Source: a virus
Lineage: Duplodnaviria > Caudoviricetes
Virus record (IMG/VR): IMGVR_UViG_3300016471_000824
Location: 1-61,577 of that record
Length of the DNA: 61,577 nt
Strand: one strand, 5' to 3'
In this document: positions 1 through 29,269 of the stretch, one piece after another
Position numbering within the stretch: the stretch's first letter is position 1
Layout of the letters: each line of letters begins with the position of its first letter
Position numbers and translations under genes: made by a program
The notes under the pieces: generated by a model
Told to the model about the DNA's origin: nothing
The model's database searches: none
Seen by the model: only the letters and a program-made list of their open reading frames with translations

Positions 1-216
1 AGTTATTCAGGAAATGTAGATTTAACTTTATTTTCACCAAATAGTTTAAATGGTTTAAAAATAATAGTGAAAGATGAGGGTGGTTATGCAAGTACTTATA
101 GAATTAGAATTACTCCTTCGAGTGGTACAATAGATGGGAATGCTTACGTTGATATGAACATAAACTATATGTCACTTACATTGGTGGCAAGAAATAATAA
201 TTGGTGGTTAATTTAA
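1..216 (+). CDS. C-terminal fragment of a fibre-like virion protein (5'-truncated by the window)
   Basis: Frame 1 is open from base 1 to TAA at 214-216: ...GLKIIVKDEGGYASTYRIRITPSSGTIDGNAYVDMNINYMSLTLVARNNNWWLI*. It resembles the small C-terminal domain (IIKDExG...TIDG...SLTLV...W) common on phage fibre proteins. Confidence 0.65.
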   Translation, partial: SYSGNVDLTLFSPNSLNGLKIIVKDEGGYASTYRIRITPSSGTIDGNAYVDMNINYMSLTLVARNNNWWLI

Positions 217-217: not shown

Positions 218-1432
218 ATGGCTTATATTTTTAATAATTCGGTAAAATACTCAGATGGTCCAAACTTAGATGCGTTTGGTAGATTAAGAACTGCGGCTGT
301 TCAAAATCTTGTAGATATCAAGCACGTTTACGACAAAAATCCTCTTCAAGTTAGTGAAGTTACTGCTGGTACGGCAACATCAGTATTTAGTCAACAATAC
401 GCGAGAGTTAGAATGTCAACCTCGGCTAACAATGATTTAGTTATTCGTCAAACCAAAACACATCCTATTTATCAACCAGGTAAAAGTCAACTATTCGAGG
501 CAAGTTTTAGTAACTTTGCAATTCAATCTAATGTAATAAAAAGAGTTGGTGTATTTCAATCTACAACTGGTACACCATACAATTCGGTATTTGATGGTTT
601 GTTTTTGGAAAGTAACGGAGTGACAAGTGCAATAACATTCAACATTTATCTAAGTGGTTCTTGTACATATAGTGCGGATACTTCTGTATGGAATAACCCA
701 AATTTCAATGTAAACAATTTTGATTGGTCTGATGTTAATTTGATGACAATTGATTATCAATGGTTAGGTGTTGGTAGGGTAAGATTTGGTATGGTTTTGT
801 CAGGGCAAACATATTATTTTGTTGACTATACCGCGGCAAACAATATACCTACAGTATATATGTCATCACCAAATCAACCCATAAGATATGAAATAAGACA
901 AGTTGGTGCTGGTTCAGGTTATTTTGATATGTTATGTTCTCAAGTATCAACAGAAGGTGCATTAAATGGATTATATTCAACAGTAGGAATACCATACACA
1001 GCAACAACGACTTTAGCCACTTCAGGTGTAAAATATCCTTATATTGGTTATAGATTGAAGGAATCTTATAAATCTGTCACATCACAATATAACGCAGTAA
1101 GTGTTCTTAATACATCTAATGATAATTATTTATTAACAATGGAATTCAATCCAACTTTATCTTCAACACCAACTTGGATAGATATTCCAAATTCACCTTT
1201 CCAATATGCGTTGGGAAATGGAACTCCAACGATAACAACTGCAGGTCATATTATGACCTCGTTAATTGGTGAAGCAGGTACTACTGCGATATCAACAGTT
1301 AAATTTGACGATAATCAAATCAGAGTTGGTTCTAATGTTAATGGTACTTTAGATGAAATGTGGTTATGTATTACACCACTTGGAGCAAATGCAACATTTA
1401 AAGGAGCTGCTGATGTTCTATATTATTTATAA
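218..1432 (+). CDS. Conserved phage protein, probably virion-associated beta-sandwich
   Basis: 404-aa ORF with DAFGRLR and IDYQWLGVGRVRFG motifs recurrent in large-phage hypothetical proteins; S/T/G-rich and beta-rich. Confidence 0.55.
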   Translation: MAYIFNNSVKYSDGPNLDAFGRLRTAAVQNLVDIKHVYDKNPLQVSEVTAGTATSVFSQQYARVRMSTSANNDLVIRQTKTHPIYQPGKSQLFEASFSNFAIQSNVIKRVGVFQSTTGTPYNSVFDGLFLESNGVTSAITFNIYLSGSCTYSADTSVWNNPNFNVNNFDWSDVNLMTIDYQWLGVGRVRFGMVLSGQTYYFVDYTAANNIPTVYMSSPNQPIRYEIRQVGAGSGYFDMLCSQVSTEGALNGLYSTVGIPYTATTTLATSGVKYPYIGYRLKESYKSVTSQYNAVSVLNTSNDNYLLTMEFNPTLSSTPTWIDIPNSPFQYALGNGTPTITTAGHIMTSLIGEAGTTAISTVKFDDNQIRVGSNVNGTLDEMWLCITPLGANATFKGAADVLYYL

Positions 1433-1460: not shown

Positions 1461-2435
1461 ATGGAAGATTTAATTTTTGTATCAGCACAACCTGACGTAC
1501 CTTATTTTCATTGGCAAGTAAGAGTTTATGTTCATAACTTTATTGAAATGGGTATTAAACCCAATCAAATACATGTATTGTTTGCCATGGTATATGGAAA
1601 TACAATACCAACTAATGAATCATTAGAATTAAAAAAATTGGGAATTAATGTCCATCATTATTTGGATGAAAGAAAACAAAAACACTATATACCAAATATA
1701 AAACCTTTTTTAATTTATAAATGGTTAGAGAAAAATGCTGATTTAGGTAAACTTTTTTTTCTTCATGATGCTGACATCATATTTAGAAAATTACCGAATT
1801 TTAATGAATTACTAAATGATAATATATGTTATCTATCTGACACAATTGGATACATTGGGTATAATTACATAATGGATTGTTGTAATAGATATGAACAAAA
1901 ACATCCTCATTCTCCTAAAGGTCAACTAATTAAAGAAATGGCGAATGTTGTTGGTATTAATGTAAATTTGATAAAAGAAAACCAAAACAATTCAGGTGGT
2001 GGTCAATACCTAATAAAGAATTCAGATTACAAATTGTGGAGGAAAATATACGAGGATTGTACACCACTATATGACCAAATGTTAAGTTATCAAAGAAGAT
2101 TCCCAATAAATCCTGGTGAAATTCAATTTTGGACAGCAGAAATGTGGTCTTTGCTATGGAATCTTTGGTTACATAACTATGAAACAAAAATATCTAATGA
2201 ATTAAGTTTTTCATGGGCTACTGATTCAATAGAAATTTATAATCAACATCCCATACTTCATATGGCTGGTGTTACAGATGATTTAAAGTCAACCAAATTT
2301 TATAAGGGTGAATATATAAATGTGAGCCCATTAGATAAACTTAGTGAGAATATTAATCACTTTGAATATGTAGAAAATAATAGTTCAACTATAAAATATA
2401 TTGATTTGATGAAAAAAATAATTCAAAATCGATGA
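1461..2435 (+). CDS. GT-A fold glycosyltransferase resembling peptidyl-serine galactosyltransferase SGT1 / hydroxyproline O-arabinosyltransferase HPAT
   Basis: Motifs in the SGT1/HPAT order: YFHWQ, YIPNIKP..IYKWL, DxD (HDADIIFR), GGGQYL, WTAEMW. From memory, plant SGT1 has YFDWQ, YPAINKP..HWL, DADMIIR, WISEMY. Confidence 0.75.
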   Translation: MEDLIFVSAQPDVPYFHWQVRVYVHNFIEMGIKPNQIHVLFAMVYGNTIPTNESLELKKLGINVHHYLDERKQKHYIPNIKPFLIYKWLEKNADLGKLFFLHDADIIFRKLPNFNELLNDNICYLSDTIGYIGYNYIMDCCNRYEQKHPHSPKGQLIKEMANVVGINVNLIKENQNNSGGGQYLIKNSDYKLWRKIYEDCTPLYDQMLSYQRRFPINPGEIQFWTAEMWSLLWNLWLHNYETKISNELSFSWATDSIEIYNQHPILHMAGVTDDLKSTKFYKGEYINVSPLDKLSENINHFEYVENNSSTIKYIDLMKKIIQNR

Positions 2436-2441
2436 TAAATG

Positions 2442-2448
2442 TATTTAT
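2442..2448 (+). promoter_or_regulatory. TATTTAT upstream motif (putative phage promoter)
   Basis: TATTTAT 16 nt before the ATG at 2465; the same motif precedes many other genes in the window. Confidence 0.45.
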
Positions 2449-2464
2449 GTTTAAATTATATTAA

Positions 2465-4642
2465 ATGAGTTGTTTTTGTCCTTCAGGCTACACCGCAGCA
2501 CCAGATGATAGTGAATGTATAAGAGAAATTACCGCATCAACAAGTGGTTCTGCTTCTACTCTGACAGTATTGAAATCTAGTAGCTCGATTATCAATGGAC
2601 ACATGGGTACAGTTTTTTATGAGGACATAACAAACTTGACTTATCCTATTATTTTGACAGGAATTACTGGTTTAGGTCAAACAAAAAATGGAACACCTAT
2701 TTTTAATACTAGTTTTTTTATTGATTCAGATACTTCAAAAAATTTAAAGGATAGAACTTTGAATTTTTTATTAGGAGGACCTGGTGTCGGAGAGTTTATA
2801 GTTACCCCAAGTAATGGTGAAAATTGTAACTTAAGTGGCACAACACACGGACCGAGAATATTTCCATGTGCCAATTCTAATACAGTGTGGGGTAATAAAA
2901 GTAGTGTAACATCATCAGGAAGGTTGAATTATTCAGGTGTTTGGCCTTCAACTTCTGGTTCATATCCACCAATAAACACATATATTGGTTTTACAGCATG
3001 TTTTGATAATCCAATTTCTCAAACATATTACATTGGAGTTGGTGCTGATGATTATTTCAGATTTAAATTAAATAATACATTATTAGTTGAGGCCAACACT
3101 AGTGGTTTTACAAATGGAGTTGAGTATAACTCAACCTCAGCTTATAGTATCTATGGACAAACTTTTGCTACTTGGTCAATTTTTCCGATAACCCTTGCAG
3201 CGGGTTCGAATTACATAGAAATGGAAGGACTCAATGTTGGTGGTTTTGGTGCTTTTGGTGCTGAAATTTATTCAGGAAGTATAACAACCTTAAGTGCAAT
3301 TACTGCTCAATCTGCTTTAACTTTAGTTACGGTTTTTTCAACACGAAATTTAACGGGTTCAACATTTGATAATGCAGGTAGTTCTGGTTTAACTTGTGCG
3401 AGTGGATTTACTTTAGTGACTTGCACTGGAACACCTTTTTGTTCTCAGGTTCTGAGGACACCTTGTACTGGAACCACAACTACAACTTCTACAACTACAA
3501 CCACAACAAGGTCTTATATAAATGCAGGATATATACCAGTGAACGATTGTAATGTTTTGACAATTCAACCTTTGAATGTTATTTGTAATGTTACAAATAT
3601 CAGTGGTACACCAGATAGTTCGAATGGTTCGATAACATTAAGTATTTTAGGTGGTGTTCCTCCATACACAATAGAATGGACATATCCGAATGGTGTAACT
3701 TCATTGGGTAATCAAACAATTTATGGATTATCTACAGGAAGTTACACAGCATTAGTAACTGACTATTATGGGGATTACACATTTTCAACAACTTGTGTTG
3801 TTCCGGGATTCACCACAACATCAACATCTACAACAACCTTACCCCCAATTCCTAATTATTTGGAAAATATTTTCTGTATGTCGATAACAACAGTAAAAAG
3901 AACTGGTGGAGCCCCAACACCAAATACAACTCAAATAACTTTTCAATATAATACATATATAAATGGACAAACTTCTTGGATATCAAATTCAGGTAATGAA
4001 ATAGTATATTATAACCCATCTGTTGGTACTTCAGGTGTGTGGTCATTGTCAGCATCAACTGGTAGTATTGTTAATACTGCATTAAGTACAAGTACTTGGA
4101 CAATATTCAAAGGATTCCCAAGTTCTCCAACTTCAGGCGCTTGGACTATGTCTGTTAGTCCACCATATCCATCACAACAAACTACAACATCTATTGGCGC
4201 TTGTACAGATTTCTTATCTCTAACAATTAATACTTGGTGGGCACTAGATGATTCTGATATACCAACTGTTTACAAATTTTCAGGTGCATGTGGTGGAGCA
4301 AATGAAACACCGTGGTTTAAATGGTACTTGACAGGTGGTTTAACAAGCTCAGACATAAGTACTTTTGAAATAGAATGTGAGGATTTGGATAACCCTGGTT
4401 ATATACATTGGGATGTTACAAATATACCGAATACAACTACTCAAGTTAGTTCATCAATACCTTGGCCTGGTGGTGTAACAATAAATCCAACAACTGGTGA
4501 CCCTGGTGCTTCTAATACTGAGGGTTGGGAAGGTCCTTGTCCTCCAGTAGGAAATACTCATACTTATTTAGTAACTCTAACAGCTAATTTAGTTGCAGGT
4601 GGAACATTAACAAGTACATACACATTTACTTCAACAACATAA
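2465..4642 (+). CDS. S/T-rich multidomain virion protein: PA14-like domain, SprB-like repeat, Thr tracts, C-terminal PEBP (YbhB/YbcL)-like domain
   Basis: GADDYFRFKLNN (PA14-like); NGSITLSILGGVPPYTIEW (SprB-like); TTTTTSTTTTTT; EDLDNPGYIHWDVTNIP...GWEGPCPPVGNTHTY (PEBP-like). Confidence 0.65.
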   Translation: MSCFCPSGYTAAPDDSECIREITASTSGSASTLTVLKSSSSIINGHMGTVFYEDITNLTYPIILTGITGLGQTKNGTPIFNTSFFIDSDTSKNLKDRTLNFLLGGPGVGEFIVTPSNGENCNLSGTTHGPRIFPCANSNTVWGNKSSVTSSGRLNYSGVWPSTSGSYPPINTYIGFTACFDNPISQTYYIGVGADDYFRFKLNNTLLVEANTSGFTNGVEYNSTSAYSIYGQTFATWSIFPITLAAGSNYIEMEGLNVGGFGAFGAEIYSGSITTLSAITAQSALTLVTVFSTRNLTGSTFDNAGSSGLTCASGFTLVTCTGTPFCSQVLRTPCTGTTTTTSTTTTTTRSYINAGYIPVNDCNVLTIQPLNVICNVTNISGTPDSSNGSITLSILGGVPPYTIEWTYPNGVTSLGNQTIYGLSTGSYTALVTDYYGDYTFSTTCVVPGFTTTSTSTTTLPPIPNYLENIFCMSITTVKRTGGAPTPNTTQITFQYNTYINGQTSWISNSGNEIVYYNPSVGTSGVWSLSASTGSIVNTALSTSTWTIFKGFPSSPTSGAWTMSVSPPYPSQQTTTSIGACTDFLSLTINTWWALDDSDIPTVYKFSGACGGANETPWFKWYLTGGLTSSDISTFEIECEDLDNPGYIHWDVTNIPNTTTQVSSSIPWPGGVTINPTTGDPGASNTEGWEGPCPPVGNTHTYLVTLTANLVAGGTLTSTYTFTSTT

Positions 4643-4644
4643 AT

Positions 4645-5370
4645 ATGATTCTAACTTCAATAGTTAATATAAATGATACCATATGCGGATGTGATGGTTC
4701 TTTTGCAATCCAAGGTTTCAATGGAAATCCACCATATTCATACTCAATAAATAATGGTTTAACCTATTTCAATACACCATTATTTAGTAATTTATGTCCA
4801 GGCCAATATTCCGTTATTGTTAAAGATGTATCAGGTGAAACCTCGACAAACTCAGTTATATTGAATACGTCCAATAACTCAATTACATATAGTGTTACAA
4901 TTAATACAGCTTCAACAACAATTACTAATAATACTACCACTTTAACTAAAAAGTACGATACAACAATTTCTGTTTTTCCAAGTTTACCAAGTGGTGTGAC
5001 ATTGACGTTCAATTTGGTTCATTTAAACACCTCGAAATCCTCTCCATATTCCGGTACTTCGACAACAACTTCAACGAGTAATTTATTAAAAAATAATGTG
5101 ACACAATCTATATCATATTCAAGTTTAACATTAAGTACAACATACAATTCAATACCAGGTTGTCAAAATCAAAATGTTTATATAAGCTCATTTACTGAGG
5201 GTTGGAATAATCTGACTTTGACAATTGCGGATAATATAGTTTTGACAACATACACAACTACAACAAAAAATCAAGATATTGCTTGTTATATAGGTCAGAG
5301 TGTTGAAAACTACTCACTTAGCAATGTTTCTATTTCTGGATGTTATTGTTGTAACATCATCGTAACATAA
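4645..5370 (+). CDS. S/T-rich protein with N-terminal SprB-like repeat
   Basis: CDGSFAIQGFNGNPPYSYSINNG...FSNLCPGQYSVIVKD; C-terminal CYCC. Confidence 0.6.
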   Translation: MILTSIVNINDTICGCDGSFAIQGFNGNPPYSYSINNGLTYFNTPLFSNLCPGQYSVIVKDVSGETSTNSVILNTSNNSITYSVTINTASTTITNNTTTLTKKYDTTISVFPSLPSGVTLTFNLVHLNTSKSSPYSGTSTTTSTSNLLKNNVTQSISYSSLTLSTTYNSIPGCQNQNVYISSFTEGWNNLTLTIADNIVLTTYTTTTKNQDIACYIGQSVENYSLSNVSISGCYCCNIIVT

Positions 5371-5393
5371 TTCAATTCTCAATATTTATCTTT

Positions 5394-7814
5394 ATGGGAT
5401 ATATTTTAAAAAACACATCAGGTTTAATTAATACAAGAATAACAGATACTGGAAGACAAAAAATCTCTCAAGGTAATTTCAATATAAGTTATTTTCAAAT
5501 AGGTGATAGTGAAGTATCATATAATGCTATACCTCAAACAAGTTATAATCAGTACAATAGTAGGGTATTGGAGCCTAGTTTCAATGCTCAAAACTCAGCT
5601 GGAGTTCCACAATCAAATAAGGAAAATATAAAATATCCCTATTATGTTGATGGTAACAATGGTAATACGTATGGAATTCCATTTATGCAATCTATTGTTA
5701 GTCCAGTATATAACACAGCATCTCCAAGAGGATTCTTTTTGGGTACAACATCAGGTTCTTACATCGAATGGAGTGCAATTACAACTGGAGATTATGCACT
5801 TACTTCCAACTACATAGTTCAAATGAACACTTTGAATGGTTCAAATCTTATTACATTATCTTCGAGTACTTGTAACACAGATTTTGTGAGAAACTATCAA
5901 GTTGGTGACTTCATAACTATAGTATACGATGGTAGTGGTAGTGGTAATTGTAATTGTTTTACAGCAACAACAACCACAACGACAGCACCAGTAACAACGA
6001 CTACAACAACAACTGCTTGTGACCCACCTCCACCACCAACTACAACCACCACCACAACATGTCCAGTGACTAATTGTGGCCCATGTTTACCAAGTTATAC
6101 GGCAACATGTGTTGTTGATATGTCAAGTTGTTATACTATTTTGACTTATCGTATAACTGGTGTTTGTACAAATCAAATTAGTTTAGACAGACCAACACCT
6201 GACTTTACTTATTTGAGTGGAGATTGTTACGCACGTGTTATTGTCTATCCTTCTGGTATGACTGAAATTTATGATAGTGTGACACCTAGTCAACATTTTC
6301 CATATGATGTTATCAATTTCGAATCCGTTTGTTATACCGACCAATTCGATGTTAAAATTTGGAATATGAATATACCTTGGTCTGAAAGTCCAGCTGGATT
6401 AAATTCATCAACACATAAAGATTATACTCAATTTGGTTCGATAGATTATTTGGGTTCAAAAGAATATTTTGGTTACGCTTCAAGTAGTGGTCAAACTGAT
6501 ACAGATGCAACATATTACTACAATTCTTTTGATGATAAAATTATAGTTACACCTGAAGAACAAAAAGCAATTGCAATTATTCATTACACAAATAATACGA
6601 TAGATTTTTTCTATGGTGAAAAATTTGCTTTTGAACCTCATGACATTACATTACCAGCCGATACAACTGGTGAAGCGAGAAATTTTAAATTACACATACC
6701 TTGGTTGATGTGGCATAAAAATTCACAATGTTGTTATGGCCAAACATTTTATGTCGATCCTCCAGGTTTTGATGATTTGATAATTCCACTTTTTACTGTA
6801 AATTATTTGGAATCAAAACAAAATCAAGACATGAACAACCCTGGTATTAGGTATTATCATCTTTGGGATACAAATCCAAACCCAAGTAGCACACCTATAG
6901 CAGGAATACCCAATAGAGTAGGTAAAGTTTTTCCTGACCATAAGTTAATCATAATTGATGATGAAGAAATTGTTGCGGCAATGTCTTATAAATCAAATAG
7001 AAATTGGACTTTACCTGCACCAAGAATTGCTTTAATTACACCTAATATTTGTGGATTAGATAGTGAATCTGTTGAGGGTATATTAACTGGTGAAACACAA
7101 TATCTTCATGTTACTTACAGATTAAGTAATTCATCTGCCTACACAAACTCATTACATTCTAACTATTATCAAATAATTCAAGGACCAAATATAACTTGTA
7201 ATCCACAAAGTTCACAAAATGTAAGTGTTAGATTTGGAGATGAATTTAATTGTCTTTCATCAAATCCAAGTATATGTTCCGTAAATTGTGATATTACATC
7301 GGGATATATAGCTGATACATTCGAAATTTTATGTCAAAAAATTGAAGGAAATGGGCGACCTGAACCTTCGGAATGGAAAATAATCGATTATTCTTTTCAA
7401 TTAAGTGGGACGAATCTTAATGGTTATATTACCCAATCAGGTTTAACTGGAAATACCTTCGTCATAACTCAAGATTTGTACGATAATGCACCCTTGTATG
7501 ATTTAAGTGATTATATTAATTTAACAACTGTAGGATATTCAGGAACACAATTAAACTTTGGAGATGAATATTATTTTTATGGTAATATAGAAACTGATAT
7601 TCAGGCAACAATTTATGAAATGAGATATCAAGTAGTATTAGGTCAGTCAGAATTTCAATATTCCTCAAATCCATCATGGAATACAACAGTACAACCATTT
7701 ATAACTGAAGTTGGTCTTTACGATTCTGATAAAAATCTTATGATTTTATCAAAATTACAATCACCTTATCCAAGAACAGGAATTCAACAATTTGTAATCA
7801 AATTAGACATTTAA
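5394..7814 (+). CDS. Baseplate/fibre-attachment structural protein with Thr/Pro/Cys-rich insert
   Basis: N-terminal ITDTGRQKI...FQIGDSEVSY and C-terminal ITEVGLYDSDKNLMILSKL match large-phage baseplate/tail-collar-like proteins; TATTTAT at 5383-5389. Confidence 0.6.
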   Translation: MGYILKNTSGLINTRITDTGRQKISQGNFNISYFQIGDSEVSYNAIPQTSYNQYNSRVLEPSFNAQNSAGVPQSNKENIKYPYYVDGNNGNTYGIPFMQSIVSPVYNTASPRGFFLGTTSGSYIEWSAITTGDYALTSNYIVQMNTLNGSNLITLSSSTCNTDFVRNYQVGDFITIVYDGSGSGNCNCFTATTTTTTAPVTTTTTTTACDPPPPPTTTTTTTCPVTNCGPCLPSYTATCVVDMSSCYTILTYRITGVCTNQISLDRPTPDFTYLSGDCYARVIVYPSGMTEIYDSVTPSQHFPYDVINFESVCYTDQFDVKIWNMNIPWSESPAGLNSSTHKDYTQFGSIDYLGSKEYFGYASSSGQTDTDATYYYNSFDDKIIVTPEEQKAIAIIHYTNNTIDFFYGEKFAFEPHDITLPADTTGEARNFKLHIPWLMWHKNSQCCYGQTFYVDPPGFDDLIIPLFTVNYLESKQNQDMNNPGIRYYHLWDTNPNPSSTPIAGIPNRVGKVFPDHKLIIIDDEEIVAAMSYKSNRNWTLPAPRIALITPNICGLDSESVEGILTGETQYLHVTYRLSNSSAYTNSLHSNYYQIIQGPNITCNPQSSQNVSVRFGDEFNCLSSNPSICSVNCDITSGYIADTFEILCQKIEGNGRPEPSEWKIIDYSFQLSGTNLNGYITQSGLTGNTFVITQDLYDNAPLYDLSDYINLTTVGYSGTQLNFGDEYYFYGNIETDIQATIYEMRYQVVLGQSEFQYSSNPSWNTTVQPFITEVGLYDSDKNLMILSKLQSPYPRTGIQQFVIKLDI
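5961..6059 (+). repeat. ACN/CCA codon run encoding a Thr/Pro linker
   Basis: Encodes TATTTTTTAPVTTTTTTTACDPPPPPTTTTTTT with mixed Thr codons. Confidence 0.8.
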
Positions 7815-7817: not shown

Positions 7818-8417
7818 ATGACCGAAAATATGAAACAATCACCAAAGGTTTTAGGTTTGGATATATCTACTAAAACTATAGGTTGGGCACTTTTTGATAT
7901 CGAAACTAAAGACTTATTGGAGTTAACTCACATATCACCAGTACTTAAACCAAAAGAGGAAAATAAAATGAAAGAATTGTTTCTCAAAACTGAGATATTT
8001 AAAACAAAATTAGAAAAATATGATGAACTTAATATAAAAAAAGTAATCATAGAAGAACCACTATTGAATAGTAATAATGTTTATACAATACAAACTTTAA
8101 TGAGATTCAACACATTAATTTCTAAGGAAATTTACGATGTTTTGGGTATTGTACCCGATTATATATCTACTTACAACTCTAGAAAAAATGCCTTTCCTTG
8201 GTTGGTAAAAGACAATGGTAATGGAAAGTTTGTTTTATTTGGTGGTCTCCCAAAAGATTGTGATAAAAAACAAATTATTTGGGAACAAGTCGCAAAAAGA
8301 GAACCTCAAATAAATTGGAGTTACACAAAAAACAACACACTCAAAAAAGAAAACTATGATATGAGTGATGCTTATTGTTGTGTTATAGGTTATATGAAAA
8401 GTGAAAATATTTGGTAG
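7818..8417 (+). CDS. RuvC-like Holliday junction resolvase
   Basis: RNase H-fold acidic motifs VLGLDISTKTIGWA, VIIEEP, DMSDAY; abuts the convergent minus-strand operon with no gap. Confidence 0.75.
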   Translation: MTENMKQSPKVLGLDISTKTIGWALFDIETKDLLELTHISPVLKPKEENKMKELFLKTEIFKTKLEKYDELNIKKVIIEEPLLNSNNVYTIQTLMRFNTLISKEIYDVLGIVPDYISTYNSRKNAFPWLVKDNGNGKFVLFGGLPKDCDKKQIIWEQVAKREPQINWSYTKNNTLKKENYDMSDAYCCVIGYMKSENIW

Positions 8418-10562
8418 TTACGGACCACAACTAACACAATTAATATTGTACGAAATAATCACACTAATCACCACAGTTGCATCAATATAATCTATAGATG
8501 GATTACATAAAGTACTTATTGTAATTTCACCAGTAACAGGATTAATTACCACACTTTCTATTTCAGAATACAAATCTAATAAAATTTCCACAGCATTATA
8601 AAAAATAGTATCTGATGGAAAATCAGTAAGTCCTGATGTTGTATAAAAACCTATTGAGTTAGTTACCCCATTCACATCTACTTGACAAACAAATGTAGCA
8701 GCACTTAATAAACAATTAGTATCACCAGATGTTAAATCATGGAAACCTTCTAAAAACATTTGTTGTAATCCTTTTTTAATCAATTGTCCAGAGTTTTTGA
8801 AATCACCATCACATAAATTGTAAACTTGGTATGAGGTGATTAGATTATATCCAAAAAGGGATACACTCCTTGTTTGATTACAACCAAAATCATCTGTAAC
8901 ACTTAATGTGTACGTTCCTGCAGTAAGTCCAGATATAGTTGAACCAGTTTGTCCACTCGGTACATTTGAACTCCAATTATAAGAGAAGGGGGGTTCACCA
9001 TCTAATATAAATGTCTCTATTACACCATCATTACCCGCTAAGGGTGATATTGGATTTAGAATAAAGTTTACAGACGAAGAACTTGGTATAAGAATTGGAA
9101 TAAATTGTTGACATAGATTTGCATCTATTACTGATGCTGTGTAATTACCTGAAGCTAAACCAGAAAATGTATATCCTGATAAACTCGTGTTAACTATGAC
9201 ACCATCCAATTGATAAATATATGGTGGTGTACCACCACTACTTATATTCAATGTAACAATACCATTATTTTGTCCACAAGTTGTACCTGAAACTACAGAA
9301 CTTAAGTTATAAAGAATTGTATTATTAATGGTTACTGATTGAGTGAAAACACAAGGTCCCCCATCTGTTATTTGTAAAGTATAGCTACCCGATTCTAAGG
9401 CGTTGAAATTAACGTTTGTTGCATTTGTTATCGTTGTTGCTGAATTTCCAGTATAATCTATTAAAGTGTAGGAATAGGGAGGTGAACCACCAAACAATGA
9501 AACAGATATAACCCCAGTATTATTATTACATAAAGAATTTGTTGTAGAAACCGATACATTTGTAAATGAATTTGGAGTTAATAAAACTGTTGAGGCAACA
9601 AAATTACAAAGACCAGCATCGGTTACACTTACTGAGAAATTACCTGCTGGAAGTCCTGTAAAAGTATGACTTGAACCAAATGTAACAATAACAGCACCAT
9701 TAGAACCTGAATAATAAAAAGGTGCCGTTCCACCTGTTGCTACAATTGTAACTGAACCATCAGACGTATAACATGAAGGATTTGTTATTGTAAAAGTTCC
9801 AAATCCTATTGGAGGTACTTCGTCAACAACAACACCTAAACTACTTGAACATCCTGCACTATCAGTAACAACAACATTATAATTACCTGGTGTTAATCCT
9901 GTAATTGATTGTGTAGTTGAACCATTAGACCATAGATAAGTATAAGGCGGAACTCCAGTTTGTCCTGTAACATAAATAGCCCCTGAATCTACAGCACAAC
10001 CCGCATCATTAATAACATAAACACCAAAATCTAATGTTGAGGATGATTTGACGATACATGATTCTGACTTACCAGTACAACCACCACCATCATCTGCGAC
10101 AACATAATACGTACCTGCTGACAACGAACCAAAAGTAAACAAATTATTAAAACTTTGACCTGAACTTATAAATCCATTATTTGTTTCATAAAGTGAAAAT
10201 ATAGGTGAATTATAAAAGTTTGTTGTGTCAGCAGTTAAACTACCATTATTTAAATTACAAGTTGTATTTTGTATTTCAGTTATGGTTACACAAGTACCAG
10301 TAGATATATAAACACTTACTGGAAATGTAGTGCTGCCACCTGAACAACTATCAATGACACTAAATACATAAGAACCACCCGAAAGATTAGTTAAAGAGTA
10401 ACCAGTTGCACCACTTAAGGGAATTGTCCCGAAATTGGGACTTATCCATGAGATTGTATAATCAGGAGCACTACCAAAAATACTAACATTGAAAGCACCT
10501 ATGGAAGAATTACTACAATCACCAGTTACACTATTTACTACTACATCTAAAAAACAAGCCAT
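8418..10562 (-). CDS. SprB-repeat adhesin-like virion protein
   Basis: About 7 repeats of C...G.I....GG..PY.Y.W...GL..G.Y.V.V.D..GC. Start reassigned to the ATG at 10562 (MACFL), which overlaps the upstream TAA (TAATG). Confidence 0.75.
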   Translation of the reverse strand: MACFLDVVVNSVTGDCSNSSIGAFNVSIFGSAPDYTISWISPNFGTIPLSGATGYSLTNLSGGSYVFSVIDSCSGGSTTFPVSVYISTGTCVTITEIQNTTCNLNNGSLTADTTNFYNSPIFSLYETNNGFISSGQSFNNLFTFGSLSAGTYYVVADDGGGCTGKSESCIVKSSSTLDFGVYVINDAGCAVDSGAIYVTGQTGVPPYTYLWSNGSTTQSITGLTPGNYNVVVTDSAGCSSSLGVVVDEVPPIGFGTFTITNPSCYTSDGSVTIVATGGTAPFYYSGSNGAVIVTFGSSHTFTGLPAGNFSVSVTDAGLCNFVASTVLLTPNSFTNVSVSTTNSLCNNNTGVISVSLFGGSPPYSYTLIDYTGNSATTITNATNVNFNALESGSYTLQITDGGPCVFTQSVTINNTILYNLSSVVSGTTCGQNNGIVTLNISSGGTPPYIYQLDGVIVNTSLSGYTFSGLASGNYTASVIDANLCQQFIPILIPSSSSVNFILNPISPLAGNDGVIETFILDGEPPFSYNWSSNVPSGQTGSTISGLTAGTYTLSVTDDFGCNQTRSVSLFGYNLITSYQVYNLCDGDFKNSGQLIKKGLQQMFLEGFHDLTSGDTNCLLSAATFVCQVDVNGVTNSIGFYTTSGLTDFPSDTIFYNAVEILLDLYSEIESVVINPVTGEITISTLCNPSIDYIDATVVISVIISYNINCVSCGP

Positions 10563-13500
10563 TACACACAATAAATTGAGAAGTTTATTCCGACATTTAA
10601 CTTAAAGTTAATACCGACCTCAGAAACAGAACATATCTGATTATATACTACTATAGTATCACTACTAGTAAAGTAATAATCATAACCCAAAGGTTTGATT
10701 AAATTTAAGGCAGCTACCAATGCTGTATCCCAATCAGATGTAGTAGGATAACTCAAAGGTATCAAGTTATATCCAATACCATTGAAAAATGAATATGAAA
10801 CTACTTGTATATTATCGATTCTGATATCAACATACCATTCAGTTGATAAAGTATTCAAACTACAATTGTTTGTGTCATATCCGATTGATGTTAAATATTC
10901 ATTCAGTAATTGCCCTAAAACGTTTCCAAAACTACCGAGATTTGGGTTACTTTTCCAAGGATATTTAGAACACTCAGTATTTTGTACGGCACAATCAAAG
11001 GTATATAAATTATCTATTAGTTCACAAGGTCTACATGGATTTGGTCTCAAGGATTTGGGTGTAGTAGAGTTTGAACAAACTACACTAGAGGTAGAACTTA
11101 TCGTTCCAGCTATATTTGTAATATTTGTCCATATACCACCAACAGGACAATCTGAACTTGAATTCAGAGTCCCAACTAAAAAACCATCGTAATAGTATTC
11201 CCATCGTGTAGAACCTGAATTATAAGAAATTACCATATCTCTACTCAATCCACAACAAGGATCATAACCCAAAAAAGATTCTTTCCCATTAACATATCCA
11301 TTTGGACTTAAGATACTTATAAGTGTACTTGTATTTCTTGATGAACCGGTTAAACTTATACATTCACATGATTGAGTTGAACTAGGGGTTGTTGTTACAA
11401 TTTGACATCCTCTTTGTCGCTTCCATTGAAATTTTTGTCTATGAAAGATTGAATTTTCTAACTTCACACCAGTGTTCCATATAGTTGTTGCTGGAACCAT
11501 TTGTTCAATTAAACGTATCCAATAATCTCCCAAACCATTAACATATTCAATCATAGTTCGGTATGTAAAATTATTATTTTCTATATTAACATCCTGTAAT
11601 GATTGTAAATATTTCCAATAAATCGATTGTAAAGTTGGGTAACCACTTGTTTTACCATCAGTGGAGTATTGTCTGTTTCTTACGTTGATAGTGTTTTTCC
11701 AAAAAGTTTGAGCGAATTCAAAAAAAGTTTTTTGTTTGGGTTCTGGATTAATTATAGTCCAATCGACACCACCTCTGTCTGGATAACAAGTTGGGGCATT
11801 TGGAAAACAACTATTTGGATTAACATAATTTAAACCTTCATTTGGTATTGGATAATTATACAAACGTGACATATACCATACATCATATAACAAACCTTGT
11901 GCAGGATTTAAAAATATTTCAGTATTTTTAACGTTCAAAACTAATTTATCATCAGATACAAAGTATCTTGCATTAATATTACCATCCAAATTAACTCTCA
12001 ATAAAACTTCAGTATCATACCAAGATTTATTGTTATCAACTGAGGGTGAAATATTATATCCCAATTGTAAAAAAGGAAATTTTCTAAACCTATCCAAATA
12101 TTCCTGACCATAAGTGTAAGGTTTCAAACTTGTTTGATAGTCAGGATTCAATCCGCGAAAAACACTTAAAGTTGTATTAACTTCTTCAGGTGCTCTGTGT
12201 TGTGGTGTTTGTTCAAACCATCCACTTCCTATTTGAAAAAAATATGTATCACTATCTGTTATAGTTTTAGGGAAGCCAAATTCATCTATAGGGAATTCAT
12301 CGATAGTAATGTTAACATCCCTAATTGTGGCTATTGTTGTAAATCCAGTGTATTGTATACCAAATAAAGTAAAAACGTTTGAACTTTCTAATGTTGGTGT
12401 TTGTTCAACTAAAGTACCACCTGATATTTGTGCAAAATAACTATTGAATTTGTTTATATTGATTCGTTGATCGGCTAAATAAACATATTCATTAAATTCA
12501 ACCAAAGCTTCTGGTGCACCAATTAATCTCAATAAATTTTCTATGGACTTTCTTGTACCTTTTGATTTGAATAAATAAGCGGTGTTCAAAATAACATTTC
12601 TATAAAACTGATAATTCAATTCATTTGGTGTTTTGGAAATAGGTACACCACTATACGAGGACTTTTCTTGATTAGATTGTCCAAACACTGAGTTCAAAAA
12701 GTCCGTATTTGTTATTGGTGAAATGTTTGTTTGCCAACCCAAAGTTTGAGCCAAATTTCTTAATAGCTGAGAGGGTATATCATTTCTGACATTATAATTT
12801 ACTGATGTTACATACGACAAACTATTAATATACTTATTTACCTCATCAAAACTTCTTCCATAAATTTGTAATACTTTATCCATCTTTTGTCCGATGGTAT
12901 CAAATTCTTTAAAAGCAGGTGTTGTAAAAAATCTTGATATTAAATCGGTTCTATAAGAATCAAATGATACACTTATATCATTGAGTGTTGTTAAATAATC
13001 TGTAAAAGAACTCGAAATAATGTCTAAATTCCATAATCCTAAAATTGGCCAACTTACTGAAGCAGTATCCGAATAGTATGTTCCATCTTCTGTTTCTTTT
13101 GGTACAACAAATGATGCGGTATATATAGGTGTTGCATTTCTGTTCAAAAGAAAATTCTCCACTTCGTCCAAATTCTCATTGAATACTTTATTAACTTCAC
13201 TATCATTTGGTCTGATAATTATGTTTCCAAAAACATTAGTTTCACCAGAAAATGGATTACCAATAATGGTTATATTTAAATTACCTGATGTCAATGAGTT
13301 TGTTGGTATTATACGTTTCAATTGATAACCATTATCACCATAATAAAGCGAATATTTAGCATATTCCAAAGTCATATTTCTCAAAGAAGATACTGGTATT
13401 TCTCTTAATGATAGATTTCTCGTAGAGTTAGTTGTAAAATCTATACCGAATGGATTTCTTATTTTTGTTAAATCTAAGTTAAAAGTAGTTTCATTATAAA

Positions 13501-24135: not shown

Positions 24136-25974
24136 TTATGAAAAATTGATAGTGCTCAAATTCTTAACACGAACACTAATATCTCTATTAGGATATCTTA
24201 CTTGATAAGTTTGACTAGGTTCTGCAAATATGGTATCATCAATCAATTCAATTTGTTTGGTCTCACTATCTGAATATCTTTGAGATGTTTGAGAAGATGA
24301 ATATTCTCCACCTACTTTATTAAAAACTAAAATACTTGACAAAGTAATTACACCATTTTGTGATTGTATTATTCTTCTTAATTCAGATATATTAACGTTT
24401 TCTCCTAAATTTCTGACAGATGGTGACATAAAATTGGTTACATTGTCAACAATTTGAGTAATCACTGCACCTTGATTCTGACTATTATCTAATACAACAT
24501 CAATTGTAAATGCTAAATCAATTACATTTGCAGTTTCAATAGAAATATAATCATTAATCATCCTATAATTCGAAAGGTAGTTTGCAACATTATTTTTTAA
24601 TGTATTAGATATGATTTCAGTCAATCTACCAGTTTCATCATAAGATAACATTTTTATTTTTATTTTATTATTTTCTTCTGTAATTGTAACTTTAGCTGGT
24701 GCTCCGAATTGTGATGGCATCGTTCTTATTAAAGATTCATAATCATTGATTGTTACAGCTCTGTATTGAGCTGAAAAATTAAATGTTACTAAATTTCTAA
24801 CTTCTTCAGTTGTAGGTGCTGCAGCACCTCCTATCGCTGCCGTAACATTTGTACAAGCTAAAGAATTAAAAACACTTGTATTTACAGAGGTTGATGGTCC
24901 GTTTACATTAAAATTAATAGTACCTATTTGAGTTATTACGTTCACTCCTAAATTACTTCCTGTTCCTCCACCTATTCTATATTGTACGAATAATGTACTA
25001 TTAGCCTTCAAAGTACTACCTAAAGCAAAATTGTTTGAATACTTATATAAATTCAATTCAAATCCGTTTCTTGCAAATTCTCTTAGTTGTTCATCGGCTG
25101 ATTGACTTCCACTTCCAAAAGTAAGTTTACAAAAACCTTCTGGAGTAAATTCTGAAATAAATTTAGTATTTGTTTGTATATATTTTCCAACCTTTATACC
25201 CGGATTATCGGAAACTTTTGTTGGGTCTTCAATAAATACCCTATCTTCAACCAATGCTTTAACTTCATACCATCTATTATCTGCTCCCAAGAATTCTTCA
25301 TTAGTTGGTACATTTGCATATTGAGTTCCATCTTTTAATAGAACACTCGTTATACCCAAAACATTTCTCTCTGGTAAAAATAACTCAAAAAATGGTTTAA
25401 CATCATTAGCTGTAATTACCCTTTTGAAAACTTTAGTTGTTCCATTAACAACAGTTTCTCTTTTTACAATTGTATAATTTAATAACCTATTATTTGAGTC
25501 AAAGTTGGGGATTTTTAATCTATTTGGTACTCCATCGGCACTAATCGGTGACGCAAAATCAATATCAGTTACAGTTTCAAAAACTTGACCAGCTCCATTA
25601 ACTTGTGAACCCCTTCTAAGTATTCCACAATATCTTAAATCTTCTGTATCACCGAAAACTGGTACTACTATTGAAAAATCGACTAATGCAACTGATGGTC
25701 TTTGACCAGGAACTTTTAATCCATAAGTCCTTGCAATATTAAAAATGGAGGATCTTTGTTGTGCGTATTGTAAAATAGTTTCTTGTATACTTCTATCAAT
25801 ATTATATTGTAAATTATCCGATACGGCAGCGTTCAAATCCAACAATGCAGAAAAAATTGAAGCATCATTGAAATTATCAATTAAATCAGGATAATAAGTT
25901 CTAGTAAAATTAATTAATTCCGTTCTTATGGATTGGAAATCTCTTGTTGTATATGATATTTTTTTATTAGCCAT
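24136..25974 (-). CDS. Baseplate wedge protein (T4 gp6 / baseplate J-like)
   Basis: YTTRDFQSIRTELI, AQQRSSIFNIARTYG, FGSG, YRIGGG, AQYRAVTINDY. Confidence 0.85.
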   Translation of the reverse strand: MANKKISYTTRDFQSIRTELINFTRTYYPDLIDNFNDASIFSALLDLNAAVSDNLQYNIDRSIQETILQYAQQRSSIFNIARTYGLKVPGQRPSVALVDFSIVVPVFGDTEDLRYCGILRRGSQVNGAGQVFETVTDIDFASPISADGVPNRLKIPNFDSNNRLLNYTIVKRETVVNGTTKVFKRVITANDVKPFFELFLPERNVLGITSVLLKDGTQYANVPTNEEFLGADNRWYEVKALVEDRVFIEDPTKVSDNPGIKVGKYIQTNTKFISEFTPEGFCKLTFGSGSQSADEQLREFARNGFELNLYKYSNNFALGSTLKANSTLFVQYRIGGGTGSNLGVNVITQIGTINFNVNGPSTSVNTSVFNSLACTNVTAAIGGAAAPTTEEVRNLVTFNFSAQYRAVTINDYESLIRTMPSQFGAPAKVTITEENNKIKIKMLSYDETGRLTEIISNTLKNNVANYLSNYRMINDYISIETANVIDLAFTIDVVLDNSQNQGAVITQIVDNVTNFMSPSVRNLGENVNISELRRIIQSQNGVITLSSILVFNKVGGEYSSSQTSQRYSDSETKQIELIDDTIFAEPSQTYQVRYPNRDISVRVKNLSTINFS

Positions 25975-25978
25975 AGAA

Positions 25979-26437
25979 TTATATATTAATAATTACAAAG
26001 TCACTACTTTCGAATGCAGTATCAGTTGATATGTAATCAATTTTTATTTTTGCAGTATGTTCCATCTGTCCAATACCAGGTACTCTAAATTCTCTTTGAT
26101 TATCCTCGTTTATATAGTATCCTTTATCCTCTTCATTTTCTGATGCTGGCGTTATAGTAATATTAGTTATTGTGATACCGGGTATATATTCTGAAACAGA
26201 ATCTCTAATTTCCGATTCCAAATCAGAAAATGTCGGACCATCCAAAGGTTCAAAAAGGTATTCGTATAATCTCGTTCCAAAATCAGGTAAGTAGTATCTT
26301 GTTCCTTTTCTAGTTAACAACAAGTGAATCAAATTACTTCTGATTTCTTGTTCAGTTGTTTGAGATAAACTCAAGTAATTTCCTTCATACGAATCTTTGA
26401 ATGGGAAATTTATTCCATATGTAAAACCATCTGCCAT
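25979..26437 (-). CDS. Baseplate wedge protein, GPW/gp25 family
   Basis: IRSNLIHLLLTRKGTRYYLPDFGTRLYEYLFEP; start reassigned to the ATG at 26437 (MADGFTY), just after TATTTAT at 26442-26448. Confidence 0.85.
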   Translation of the reverse strand: MADGFTYGINFPFKDSYEGNYLSLSQTTEQEIRSNLIHLLLTRKGTRYYLPDFGTRLYEYLFEPLDGPTFSDLESEIRDSVSEYIPGITITNITITPASENEEDKGYYINEDNQREFRVPGIGQMEHTAKIKIDYISTDTAFESSDFVIINI

Positions 26438-26484
26438 AACAATAAATATATGTCCTATATTTTTTCTATAAATACCATAAAACA

Positions 26485-26510
26485 AAAAATCACGACACTA
26501 AGTCGTGATT
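26485..26510 (-). terminator. Rho-independent terminator after nrdA-C
   Basis: 9-bp inverted repeat AATCACGAC-N5-GTCGTGATT running into a T-run on the minus strand. Confidence 0.7.
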
Positions 26511-26516: not shown

Positions 26517-27758
26517 TTAGGAAGAACAACCAAAACAATCAAATGGTGAATCGGAAGGTTTACTGGTTATTGGTTCAACGTGTGGTAATGTTGGTGTAAC
26601 TTTTGGTTTTTCTATTTTAGAAATATCCACCGCCAAGTGTTTCGCGCCAGTTGATATTGCTTTTGTTCTTACATAGTAACACAAAGTTTTCAAACCTTTT
26701 TGCCAAGCATGAAAGTGAGAAGATGTAATTTTTGATAAAGTAGGATTACCCATATAAATGTTCATAGATTGTGATTGATCAATAAATGGTCCTCTATCTG
26801 CAGCCATATTAATTAATTCCCTCTGTGATATTTCCCAAATTGTTTTGTATTTCTTCATAAGGTGTTCGATTCTCTTAACCTTTTGATTATACTTCTTATC
26901 TTCGACATCCAAATAATTATTAAAATTGATGTTTTGAATTGAGCCTTCATTGTATATAATATCATTCTTCAATTCTTCACCCCATATTCCTAATTTCTCA
27001 AAGTCAGCAATTAAATATTTGTTTACAATCATAATTTCACCACCAACTACTCTTCTATTGAATATTGCTGAATGAGCAGGTTCAGTCATTTCATAAGAAC
27101 CTGTTATCTTTGCAGAACTTGCAACTGGCATCTGTGCTGTAAACAATGAATTACATACACCATACTTCATTACATTTTCTTTTAAATCATTCCAATTCCA
27201 TCTTCCTGACAAATCATTTTCAGTTAATCCCCACATATCAAATTGGAATATACCTTTTGACATTGGTGACCCTTCGAAGAAATCGTATTTTGGATATTCA
27301 CCATCGTGAGCTAACTTATTACTTTCACTAATTGCGGCATAATAAATTGTTTCAAATATTTCTTTGTTTAATTTCTTGGCTTCTTCTGATGTAAATTCAT
27401 AATCCATTAAATAAAATACATCAGCTAAACCTTGAGTACCAATAGCAATTGCCCTTTGTTCTCTACCACCTTTTTCACCTTTATTTGTGGAATAATTGTT
27501 GATGTCAACAACTTTATTTAGTGCTCTTACTACCTTACAAGTTTCATTATAAAGTTCTTCAAAATTGAATTGTCCATCGTGTACAAAGTTCTTTAATACC
27601 ATTGAGGATAAAGTACAAATTGCCGTGGTTTTTTCATCTGTGAATTGATAAATTTCACAATTATGCACTAAAATATTATTAGCGTAAAAACAAGATGTTT
27701 CGGGAACTTGAATGTCATAAACATCTTGTCTGTCTGTTATTTTTTTTATTTTAATCAT
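26517..27758 (-). CDS. nrdA: Split-intein C-fragment (33 aa) fused to the C-terminal part of class Ia ribonucleotide reductase alpha
   Basis: MIKIKKI...DVYDIQV...FYANNILVHN|CEIYQ, then AICTLSS, TAQMPVASSAK, FIDQSQSMN, GLKTLCYYVR and C-terminal CFGC. Confidence 0.93.
   Translation of the reverse strand: MIKIKKITDRQDVYDIQVPETSCFYANNILVHNCEIYQFTDEKTTAICTLSSMVLKNFVHDGQFNFEELYNETCKVVRALNKVVDINNYSTNKGEKGGREQRAIAIGTQGLADVFYLMDYEFTSEEAKKLNKEIFETIYYAAISESNKLAHDGEYPKYDFFEGSPMSKGIFQFDMWGLTENDLSGRWNWNDLKENVMKYGVCNSLFTAQMPVASSAKITGSYEMTEPAHSAIFNRRVVGGEIMIVNKYLIADFEKLGIWGEELKNDIIYNEGSIQNINFNNYLDVEDKKYNQKVKRIEHLMKKYKTIWEISQRELINMAADRGPFIDQSQSMNIYMGNPTLSKITSSHFHAWQKGLKTLCYYVRTKAISTGAKHLAVDISKIEKPKVTPTLPHVEPITSKPSDSPFDCFGCSS
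27660..27758 (-). mobile_element. Split intein, C-part (blocks F/G)
   Basis: VYDIQV...FYANNILVHN followed by +1 Cys. Confidence 0.92.
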
Positions 27759-28917: not shown

Positions 28918-28960
28918 AAAATATATTTCATATATAAATATACCAATATAATAAAAACGA

Positions 28961-29269
28961 CTATTTGTACAAATCTAATTCATCAGTTTCAATTAATTCG
29001 TCAGCTCTTACATATCCTCTATTTTTAGTAAAAATTAAATGATCTGGAGTACATTTAATAGTAAAATTAAATTCTTCATCTATAATTTCAATAATTTCAG
29101 CGTCTTTTTTAGTTAACATTCCAGCCGTTATTAATGAAAATTTTCCATCTTTACTTAAAACCATCAATCTCTCGGATTGATTAATCAATTCAATAACTTC
29201 AGTAATTGTTAATTTTTCAATATCACCATTTTCTCTTTTTATCGTTAAAATAGTATCTCCAACTAAACA
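28961..29269 (-). mobile_element. Split intein, N-part (102 aa, blocks A/B)
   Basis: Block A CLVGDT; block B CTPDHLIFTKNRGYVRADEL; ends at TAG. Confidence 0.92.

Follow-up and report, generated by a model that had tools for sequence, protein, structure and literature searches.

What is the function of a conserved gene with a DxD motif that lies among the virion genes of a large phage, and on what does its product act? The question is raised by the gene at positions 1461..2435 (plus strand) of a stretch of viral DNA of 61,577 nucleotides (IMG/VR record IMGVR_UViG_3300016471_000824, referred to here as the window). The gene encodes a candidate poly-threonine-directed protein glycosyltransferase (GT) of 324 aa, which has an ATG start, is predicted to be soluble, and belongs to the family phrog_4417. 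An original prediction, made from the sequence alone, described it as a relative of plant protein O-glycosyltransferases that modifies the phage's own proteins. We propose that it is a virion-protein threonine O-glycosyltransferase, acting on poly-Thr tracts of the phage's own surface proteins, a reading to which we give a probability of about 0.6. The earlier idea that the enzyme acts on polypeptides, specifically the serine/threonine-rich (S/T-rich) proteins of the phage, is backed by several observations: the gene order, covariation of the gene with poly-Thr tracts, fusions of its relatives to GTs, and occurrence of the domain in peptide-maturation clusters.

The gene and the phrog_4417 family

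The open reading frame (ORF) exists as described in the original prediction, and the four motifs that had been picked out in it are all found in the translation and are conserved in the family, which shows that they are not due to chance. The sequence elements are as follows.

1503-1517, plus strand: YFHWQ motif, aa 15-19
1686-1706, plus strand: YIPNIKP motif, aa 76-82
1767-1787, plus strand: DADIIFR motif, aa 103-109
1767..1775, plus strand: DxD motif D103-A104-D105, putative ligand of the metal and the nucleotide-sugar phosphate
2130-2147, plus strand: WTAEMW motif, aa 224-229
2259..2270, plus strand: H267-x-A-G270 motif, candidate third metal ligand, with H267 and G270 invariant

The ORF matches phrog_4417 with an E-value of 7.7e-72, with aa 6-320 aligning to positions 3-291 of the 293 in the profile. 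This family is annotated in PHROGs as 'unknown function'. A word-indexed search gave 1207 relatives of the protein, the closest of them (other than itself) being 84% identical, and an exhaustive search gave 828 representative clusters with a cut-off of E<=1e-3, or 306 when the cut-off was E<=1e-30. None of the 120 relatives listed carries an informative name, and ten fused relatives yielded a single name. Among isolated phages, the gene is found in 77 records (tblastn, E<=1e-5), all at less than 60% identity, the hosts being Lactobacillus (23), Enterococcus (21), Staphylococcus (11), Lactococcus (8), Clostridium (3), Chryseobacterium (1) and others.

In an alignment of 59 family members, which are 28-84% identical to the window protein, residues Y76, D105, Y131, G180, F250, H267, G270 and Y313 are invariant, and W18, D103, Q222, W224, M228, W229, A269 and K282 are conserved in at least 90% of the sequences. 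The conservation is enzyme-like, and the DxD motif named in the original prediction is confirmed, given that D105 is one of the invariant residues and D103 one of those conserved in at least 90%. The motif is located at the end of a hydrophobic strand (FLHDADIIF). By analogy with GT-A enzymes, H267 may be the third metal ligand. The protein has no hydrophobic or transmembrane segment, its maximum Kyte-Doolittle(19) value being 0.84.

In a tree built from the GT domain, a supported clade of jumbo phages includes the window enzyme. The same clade contains the GT (1909..2889, 63% identical to that of the window) of L086, a 5.3-kb contig labelled as a Candidatus Woesearchaeota metagenome-assembled genome (MAG), which is probably a mis-binned phage fragment. 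A different form is seen in loci L089, L091, L094, L095 and L099 from Actinomycetota MAGs, where the proteins are about 1000-1060 aa long, with the phrog_4417 domain N-terminal, about 700 extra aa and an unusual amino-acid composition.

Poly-threonine tracts in the window and in related jumbo phages

The gene is part of a co-oriented block of plus-strand genes at the left end of the window, in which the intergenic gaps are 1-29 nt and no terminator-like site was found between 218 and 7814. The other members of the block are as follows.

1..216, plus strand: gene fragment, first in the block
218..1432, plus strand: homologue of a virion structural protein (phrog_1645, E 2.9e-50), with no Thr tract
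2465..4642, plus strand: candidate acceptor B, 725 aa, 29.1% S+T, C-terminal PEBP domain, Thr tracts at window 3473-3508 and 3812-3838
4645..5370, plus strand: candidate acceptor C, 241 aa, 32.0% S+T, S/T tract at 5056-5079
5394..7814, plus strand: candidate acceptor D, 806 aa, 20.3% S+T
7818..8417, plus strand: RuvC-like gene, after the three S/T-rich ORFs

Runs of at least six S or T residues are found in three of the 35 ORFs of the window, and these are exactly the three that follow the gene. The same three ORFs contain six of the eight runs of at least four threonines in the window, where shuffling would lead one to expect fewer than one. The tracts are encoded by a mixture of ACA, ACC, ACT and ACG codons, and therefore it is threonine itself that is selected, and not a slipped DNA repeat. 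In the 806-aa ORF, the N-terminal part is variable and the C-terminal 577 aa are conserved; between them, at 5961-6059, are three Thr tracts and a Pro5 run.

The gene had been predicted to lie directly upstream of S/T-rich structural genes. Its orientation and position are as predicted, in that it is co-oriented with three S/T-rich ORFs and ends 29 nt before them. However, the word 'structural' applies by homology only to 218..1432, and none of the three downstream ORFs has a structural match in PHROGs. The ORF at 218..1432 matched 130 phage records by tblastn, mostly T4-like cyanophages with the name 'virion structural protein' and about 30% identity; it has no match among PDB sequences, and its homologue adjoins the phrog_4417 gene in only 8 of 80 related loci. 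The targets originally suggested, namely tail, baseplate, fibre and sheath proteins, find no support in the window, whose sheath, tube and baseplate ORFs contain no Thr tracts.

The window phage is a jumbo myovirus, because it has contractile-tail genes and the related contigs are 274-318 kb long (93-100% completeness). Across its clade the downstream order is conserved, with at least one of the three S/T-rich ORFs detected by tblastn in 76 of 80 loci, and the slot upstream of the phrog_4417 gene is hypervariable. Synteny in related phages had been put forward as a check on the prediction, and the outcome is favourable: among the 63 loci with enough flanking sequence, a poly-Thr ORF is present within 5 kb downstream in 54, and upstream in 7. 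Poly-Thr is retained in 54 of the 62 complete homologues of the 806-aa ORF in related loci, with runs that vary in number and length.

Three near-complete relatives (G511, G512 and G513; 274-318 kb) have one copy of the phrog_4417 gene each. They contain only 2-3 sites per genome with seven consecutive ACN codons, one of which is 4-5 kb from the gene in each case. Among four ACN sites examined, a distant one is in a tail sheath homologue, another is in a 281-aa Cys-rich ORF, and a third is not an in-frame Thr run. The sheath homologue (L259, G512:C1:29400-35400, ORF 2052..5372, in the 291-kb relative) is 76% identical to the window sheath over the aligned part, and its Thr tracts, at aa 292 and 310, are located between its two aligned blocks, in a region that does not align with the window sheath.

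Some further features of these genomes and ORFs may be recorded here. G511, G512 and G513 each have 4-5 GT2-family matches above the Pfam cut-off, and two of the three encode a 310-aa nucleoside diphosphate (NDP)-sugar epimerase/dehydratase, all of these being far from the phrog_4417 gene. The PEBP/YbhB-like domain of the 725-aa ORF is at aa 608-707 (Pfam E 1.2e-10; NCBIfam TIGR00481 below its cut-off). By eye, the 725-aa and 241-aa ORFs have 'PPY'-type repeats that resemble the SprB-repeat protein encoded on the opposite strand. The 806-aa ORF has 3100 unnamed relatives, some of them with PF25174, PF21783 or PF10282, none of which is seen in the window protein, and it has no match in isolated phages or among PDB sequences.

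Poly-threonine tails in siphophages and prophages

In cellular genomes the phrog_4417 domain is found in two settings, one of which is a short form within prophage structural modules, in Bacillota and in some other contigs. Among 74 upstream neighbours, the commonest PHROG families, drawn from many different ones, are those of major tail proteins (phrog_88 in 13, phrog_14018 in 4, and phrog_341, phrog_1696 and phrog_7440 in 3 each) and of major head proteins (phrog_840 and phrog_10 in 4 each, and others), and downstream there are tail chaperones (12+2) and head-tail connectors (9), these PHROG counts not being additive because one protein can match several families. In each of the seven annotated phages examined, a gene annotated as major tail, tube or head protein precedes the phrog_4417 gene, with at most one small ORF in between. 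In Lactobacillus phage Bacchae these two genes are found away from the main structural module, next to UvsX and a sigma factor, which suggests that they travel as a unit.

Eight annotated phages have capsid or tail proteins with poly-Thr near the gene. Major tail and capsid proteins have the runs at the C-terminus; in two small proteins (Bacchae gp069 and iLp84 gp8) the runs recur throughout the sequence. The carriers include the major tail proteins of phiFL1A, 1706 and SA2, the tube protein of phiCTP1, and the capsid proteins of phiFL1A and iLp84. The head protein encoded before the gene in vipetofem lacks a tract, but the major tail protein of this phage has T9 at its end. Capsid proteins of several sequence families end in a near-identical TTTTTT-x-P-TTTTTTT design.

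The short-form prophage loci show the same association, with a tract in one of the two upstream ORFs in 32 of 47. Adjacent ORFs carry a tract in 32 of 85 cases, compared to 39 of 446 for other ORFs (p 2e-10), and many of the tract-bearing 'other' ORFs are capsid- or tail-sized ORFs of the same prophages.

Loci with and without the gene were also compared. For one tail-protein family, loci were found with a query that lacked the tail; 74 of them could be evaluated, and 6 were excluded for having little downstream sequence. Both the tail and the GT are present in 13 of the 74 loci and neither in 61, with none having only the tail or only the GT (p 1e-14). At these loci, ORFs that are not adjacent to the gene are also tailed, in 13 of 13 GT-positive loci compared to 2 of 39 GT-negative ones. 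They lie about 1.5-2.7 kb away, and most are capsid-sized (about 388-406 aa) or about 105 aa. This is the key control, and it argues against a simple co-transfer of adjacent DNA. A replicate with a capsid family, requiring a tract of at least six, gave 4 of 4 GT-positive against 0 of 39 GT-negative (p 8e-6).

In Staphylococcus phage VB-SauS-SA2 (L167), a small ORF at 2652..2924 has 56% S+T with long Thr runs. Its reading frame differs from that of the major tail protein gene, whose 3' end it overlaps, and it could be a frameshift extension of the tail protein.

Peptide-maturation clusters in Bacteroidota

In 23 Bacteroidota loci the phrog_4417 domain is fused to a GT2 domain and a LanC-like gene follows directly; Pfam detects 17 of these and jackhmmer all 23. 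They come from Chitinophaga, Mucilaginibacter, Pedobacter, Sphingobacterium, Elizabethkingia and other genera, and the LanC-linked forms need 3 changes on the GT-domain tree. The cluster of Chitinophaga niastensis (L112, 2179..10107) may serve as an example, there being 22 similar loci among L104-L164. It consists of the following genes.

Gene 1: 692-aa ORF, an outer-membrane receptor by look only
Gene 2: 64-aa peptide, with an ...ELGQIEGG leader and a core ending GKTTTVPTTPAPTA
Gene 3: rSAM/SPASM (radical SAM) maturase-like
Genes 4: two unknown ORFs
Gene 5: phrog_4417 domain fused to a GT
Gene 6: LanC-like
Gene 7: TIGR04157-like GT

Credible peptides with a double-glycine leader can be read in 12 of the 23 loci, most of the cores being S/T/P-rich in parts and otherwise Cys-rich. 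In the 23 LanC-like partners, no column of Cys or His reaches 85%, meaning that the Cys/Cys/His zinc ligands are not conserved, and hence the partners are probably not canonical cyclases.

The clusters resemble the known double-glycine-leader systems of Bacteroidota (TIGR04148, TIGR04157) in their leader peptides, rSAM/SPASM maturase, LanC-like protein and TIGR04157-like GT. They differ from them in that the NCBIfam matches in L112 are all below their cut-offs, and in that the phrog_4417 domain has no name in those systems. Uncharacterised hybrid regions with rSAM, LanC and a glycosyltransferase (GlyS) are noted in Bacteroidales in the excerpted text of one paper (PMC10352776).

The likely chemistry of the enzyme

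Sugar transfer is the likeliest chemistry, because of the DxD motif, the fusion partners and the neighbouring sugar enzymes. Many relatives are fusions that begin with the phrog_4417 domain, and the partners recognised by Pfam are almost all enzymes of glycan metabolism. In ten long relatives that were scanned, PF11397 (GlcNAc transferase) is present in three, O-FucT with F5/8C in one and GT2 in one. Among 85 further relatives, Glyco_transf_7C is present three times, and GT29, GT6, GT25, GT2, GT1_3, a sulfotransferase and a GDP-Man dehydratase (as a fragment) once each. The commonest type of partner, which is the usual C-terminal domain of the Bacteroidota fusions, accounts for 52 of 67 C-terminal domains examined and is a GT2 by profile comparison (hhalign probability 92.5%). 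NDP-sugar epimerase/dehydratases make up 3 of 78 downstream neighbours.

Profiles were compared using hhalign, with shallow alignments and with reference sets collected for the purpose. The phrog_4417 family gave P 0.005 against GT8, at the DxD strand, and P 0.15 against GT2. For calibration, a true GT-A pair (GT8 against GT2) gave P 0.013, and negative controls gave P 0.18-0.53. The DxD strand of the family aligns with the DxD strands of GT8, of the GT2-like domain and of Stealth. The sequence is therefore compatible with a GT-A-like enzyme that cannot be placed in a known family.

The specific assignment to plant HPAT (GT95) in the original prediction was not upheld, as the gathering cut-off of PF23452 (23.9 bits) was never reached. 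This profile has no match in the window at E<=10; it matched 2 of the 59 family members (best E 0.09), none of the 85 further members at E<=0.01, and nothing in 301 Bacillota genomes, including G206, which has two phrog_4417 copies. The sole positive trace of HPAT is an ESM Atlas cluster in which 10% of the members have HPAT. DUF7164 (PF23741), a second lead from the ESM Atlas, was rejected, since it has no match in the window, in five family-bearing Bacillota genomes or in the set of 301 Bacillota genomes.

The alternative that survives best keeps the same acceptors and changes the chemistry: a Stealth-like hexose-1-phosphate transferase would make Thr-O-phospho-sugar and not a glycosidic bond. 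The only profile match in the PDB is to GNPTAB (7s6n_A, E 0.53), over the YIPS..P...FYHDSDIIF block. No Stealth proteins were found in five Bacteroidota genomes, and nine were then found in 201 genomes; hhalign against these nine gave alignments of 66-98 columns with P 0.002-0.006, the longest of any reference family. Pfam Stealth_CR2 matches one of the 59 members (E 0.17). However, all of these scores are sub-threshold (hhalign probability 6-13%), GT8 has a similar P (0.005) at the DxD, and the fusion partners are ordinary glycosyltransferases. Stealth proteins have four conserved regions (CR1-CR4), of which only a CR2-like block aligns with the phrog_4417 family, with no match seen to CR1, CR3 or CR4. 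We therefore regard the phosphodiester chemistry as unlikely.

Slightly less likely still is a chemistry that involves no sugar, in which some other group is put on the same Thr tracts, or Ser and Thr are prepared for elimination or cross-linking together with the LanC-like proteins. No known family can be assigned to the enzyme, which leaves room for such a chemistry, and the LanC-like gene is immediately downstream in the 23 Bacteroidota loci. However, the phage loci have no LanC-like partner, the missing zinc ligands of the LanC-like proteins weaken a reaction of the lanthionine type, and fusions to glycosyltransferases and sugar-modifying domains are recurrent.

Proposed mechanism

With glycosyl transfer to threonine as the favoured reaction, the following mechanism may be proposed. 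The phrog_4417 product would be a soluble cytoplasmic transferase of the DxD type, with a nucleotide-sugar as the likely donor. It would add the first sugar to threonine hydroxyls in poly-threonine tracts, giving an O-Thr linkage, before or during assembly of the particle. In the jumbo myovirus the acceptors would be the three co-oriented downstream ORFs (2465..7814), whose products are presumed to be incorporated into the virion. In siphophages and prophages of Bacillota they would be the poly-Thr C-terminal tails of three kinds of protein: major capsid, major tail and small Thr-rich. The glycan may then be extended by GT domains that are fused or separately encoded, and the particle would come to bear a hydrophilic, mucin-like brush of glycans.

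A wider proposal, for which we consider the chances to be about even, is that a 'poly-threonine code' is common to phages from two or more bacterial phyla. Here phrog_4417 enzymes would read Thr tails and linkers on capsid, tail-tube, sheath-insertion and fibre-like proteins and add mucin-like O-glycans to them, and the domain would have been recruited into ribosomal-peptide pathways of Bacteroidota as a peptide-Thr/Ser glycosyltransferase.

Evidence against the proposal, and other alternatives

Several observations weigh against a poly-Thr-directed glycosyltransferase of virion proteins. The 324-aa protein has no match in Pfam, in NCBIfam or among PDB sequences, and the profile-profile signals (P about 0.005) reach only the level that true GT-A families show against each other with such shallow alignments. 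The three S/T-rich ORFs of the window are candidate acceptors and not demonstrated components of the virion. In the jumbo-phage clade, 9 of the 63 loci have no downstream tract, and some tracts in the complete relatives are 49-68 kb from the phrog_4417 gene. Among the prophage-type loci, 11 of 47 have no tract in the fetched stretch, several of these being short contigs. On strict criteria, the phylogenetic independence of the covariation in the tail-protein family is weak: on the core tree of the tail protein, the trait needs 8 changes on the best tree, of which only 2 are forced by supported branches, and the four GT-positive capsid loci probably represent 1-2 lineages. There are individual exceptions, in that the capsid protein of L111 has no tail despite the presence of the GT, GT-negative L176 keeps a T10 tail on its 105-aa ORF (2489..2803), and ten GT-negative capsid proteins (L290-L312) have a short KTTT(S/T)T stub at a lenient threshold. 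Such remnants in GT-negative relatives may have been left by a recent loss of the system, or may be points from which it is gained. Finally, when ten other phages were surveyed by glycostain, no glycoproteins were found, according to the excerpted text of PMC12894461, from which it follows that virion glycosylation is not general.

It is improbable, in our view, that the poly-Thr tracts are mere flexible linkers, with the enzyme acting elsewhere and the tail and the gene moving together as a module. In the siphophages the DNA coding for the tail is directly before the gene, so that one recombination could move both, and the strictly supported independent events number only two. However, this does not account for the tails on non-adjacent ORFs, which follow the presence of the GT as described above. 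In addition, the pairing recurs with acceptors that are not homologous, these being the different tail and head PHROG families, the small Thr-rich proteins, the large proteins of Bacteroidota phages, and the precursors of RiPPs (peptides made on the ribosome and modified after translation).

Least probable is an enzyme that modifies host envelope polymers (teichoic acid, lipopolysaccharide or capsule) or phage DNA, and not proteins: many phage GTs do so, the window encodes a DNA methyltransferase (34380..35387) and relatives have several GT2 genes, but the methyltransferase is 32 kb away, the genes around it code for structural or S/T-rich proteins and a RuvC-like product, the enzyme has no transmembrane segment, and the position in a late structural operon, the covariation with protein tails and the RiPP context together indicate polypeptide substrates. 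Enzymes of the GT-A and GT-B types that hypermodify DNA are widespread across viral metagenomes according to the excerpted text of a preprint, which describes DNA-modifying GTs as being beside a C5-methyltransferase (C5-MT) plus 5mYOX or ThyS and as having R..DDD..EDY/F motifs (bioRxiv 10.1101/2023.12.21.572611). A scan of window ORFs detected neither 5mYOX nor ThyS, nor any other sugar- or DNA-modification domain.

The phage and the other genes of the window

The window is an IMG/VR viral record with a CheckV completeness of 21% and a G+C content of about 31%. It contains the genes of a contractile-tail phage, and also encodes ribonucleotide reductase, DnaB, a UvsX-like protein and SSB. The genes referred to above are as follows.

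24136..26485: baseplate wedge
34380..35387: DNA methyltransferase
53388..54146: baseplate hub
54197..54685: tail tube
55738..59328: tail sheath

Promoter-like matches in the window are at the level of chance (56, compared to 49.4 +/- 6.3), and no Rfam families or tRNAs were found in it. The large subunit of ribonucleotide reductase is split (26517..30544, minus strand) into an N-terminal part at 28961..30544 and a C-terminal part at 26517..27758. Between the two is a 388-aa ORF (27751..28917) with an HNH endonuclease domain at its C-terminus, and no Rfam intron family matched the region. The arrangement looks like a homing-endonuclease insertion or a split gene.

The minus-strand gene at 8418..10571 encodes a protein of 717 aa, which has four SprB repeats as well as several weak matches to Ig-like domains. 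This protein probably forms an adhesin-like appendage of the virion, and is a hint that the host belongs to the Bacteroidota.

Implications

The literature searched documents virion glycosylation for mycobacteriophages only, and within it (supplements excluded) there is no description that links phrog_4417 or poly-threonine tails to phage glycosylation. If the proposal is true, a different and far more widespread enzyme family does likewise, in phages of Enterococcus, Staphylococcus, Lactococcus, Lactobacillus, Clostridium and Bacteroidota and in freshwater-type jumbo phages. Under the wider proposal, one could tell from the sequence, by looking for the gene, which phages carry glycans and on which residues, among them Enterococcus, Staphylococcus and dairy phages that have therapeutic or industrial uses. 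Given that the Thr-run acceptor signal can be read from the genome, the hypothesis is cheap to test in existing isolates. It is of relevance to phage therapy, through immune recognition and stability, and to the control of dairy phages. It also provides a proposal of function for phrog_4417 where the current annotation gives none, and the Bacteroidota peptide clusters could lead to a new class of glycosylated ribosomal peptides.

Comparison with known systems

Two plant families are protein O-glycosyltransferases that act on repetitive polypeptides rich in Ser, hydroxyproline (Hyp) or Pro, namely GT95 (HPAT) and GT96 (SGT1). The phrog_4417 family shows faint sequence echoes of HPAT, and the motif resemblance to SGT1 is the one given in the original prediction. 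It differs in its predicted acceptor, which is Thr and not Hyp or Ser. With Stealth enzymes (GNPTAB, PDB 7s6n, and bacterial members) it shares the longest profile-profile alignment, in a block around a DxD-like motif. It differs in that the signal is sub-threshold and covers one of the four regions, and in that Stealth enzymes make phosphodiesters.

In eukaryotes, O-glycosylation of the mucin type and of the GT60 type acts on tracts rich in Thr and Ser. The clustered Thr/Pro-rich tracts are a common feature, as is PF11397, which is the domain fused in three of the ten long relatives. In contrast, the window enzyme has no PF11397 or GT27-type match, and would be cytoplasmic and viral.

The closest parallel in kind is with mycobacteriophages, where GTs (Che8 gp110, Corndog gp38 and Myrna) glycosylate the phage's own capsid or tail-tube subunits, and where glycosylation is reported to shield particles from antibodies, in the excerpted text of two papers (PMC12363180, PMC12894461). 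In both systems a GT gene, putative in the case of phrog_4417, adjoins capsid or tail genes. The hosts differ, those of phrog_4417 phages being Bacillota and Bacteroidota, with a jumbo myovirus among the phages, and so does the acceptor, which for phrog_4417 is predicted to be homopolymeric Thr. The enzyme family is also different, at the sensitivity of the tblastn search (E<=1e-5), since there are no Mycobacterium phages among the 77 positive records. The kind of system proposed is the one known from mycobacteriophages, and the differences are the enzyme family, the host range, and a homopolymeric acceptor that can be read from the sequence.

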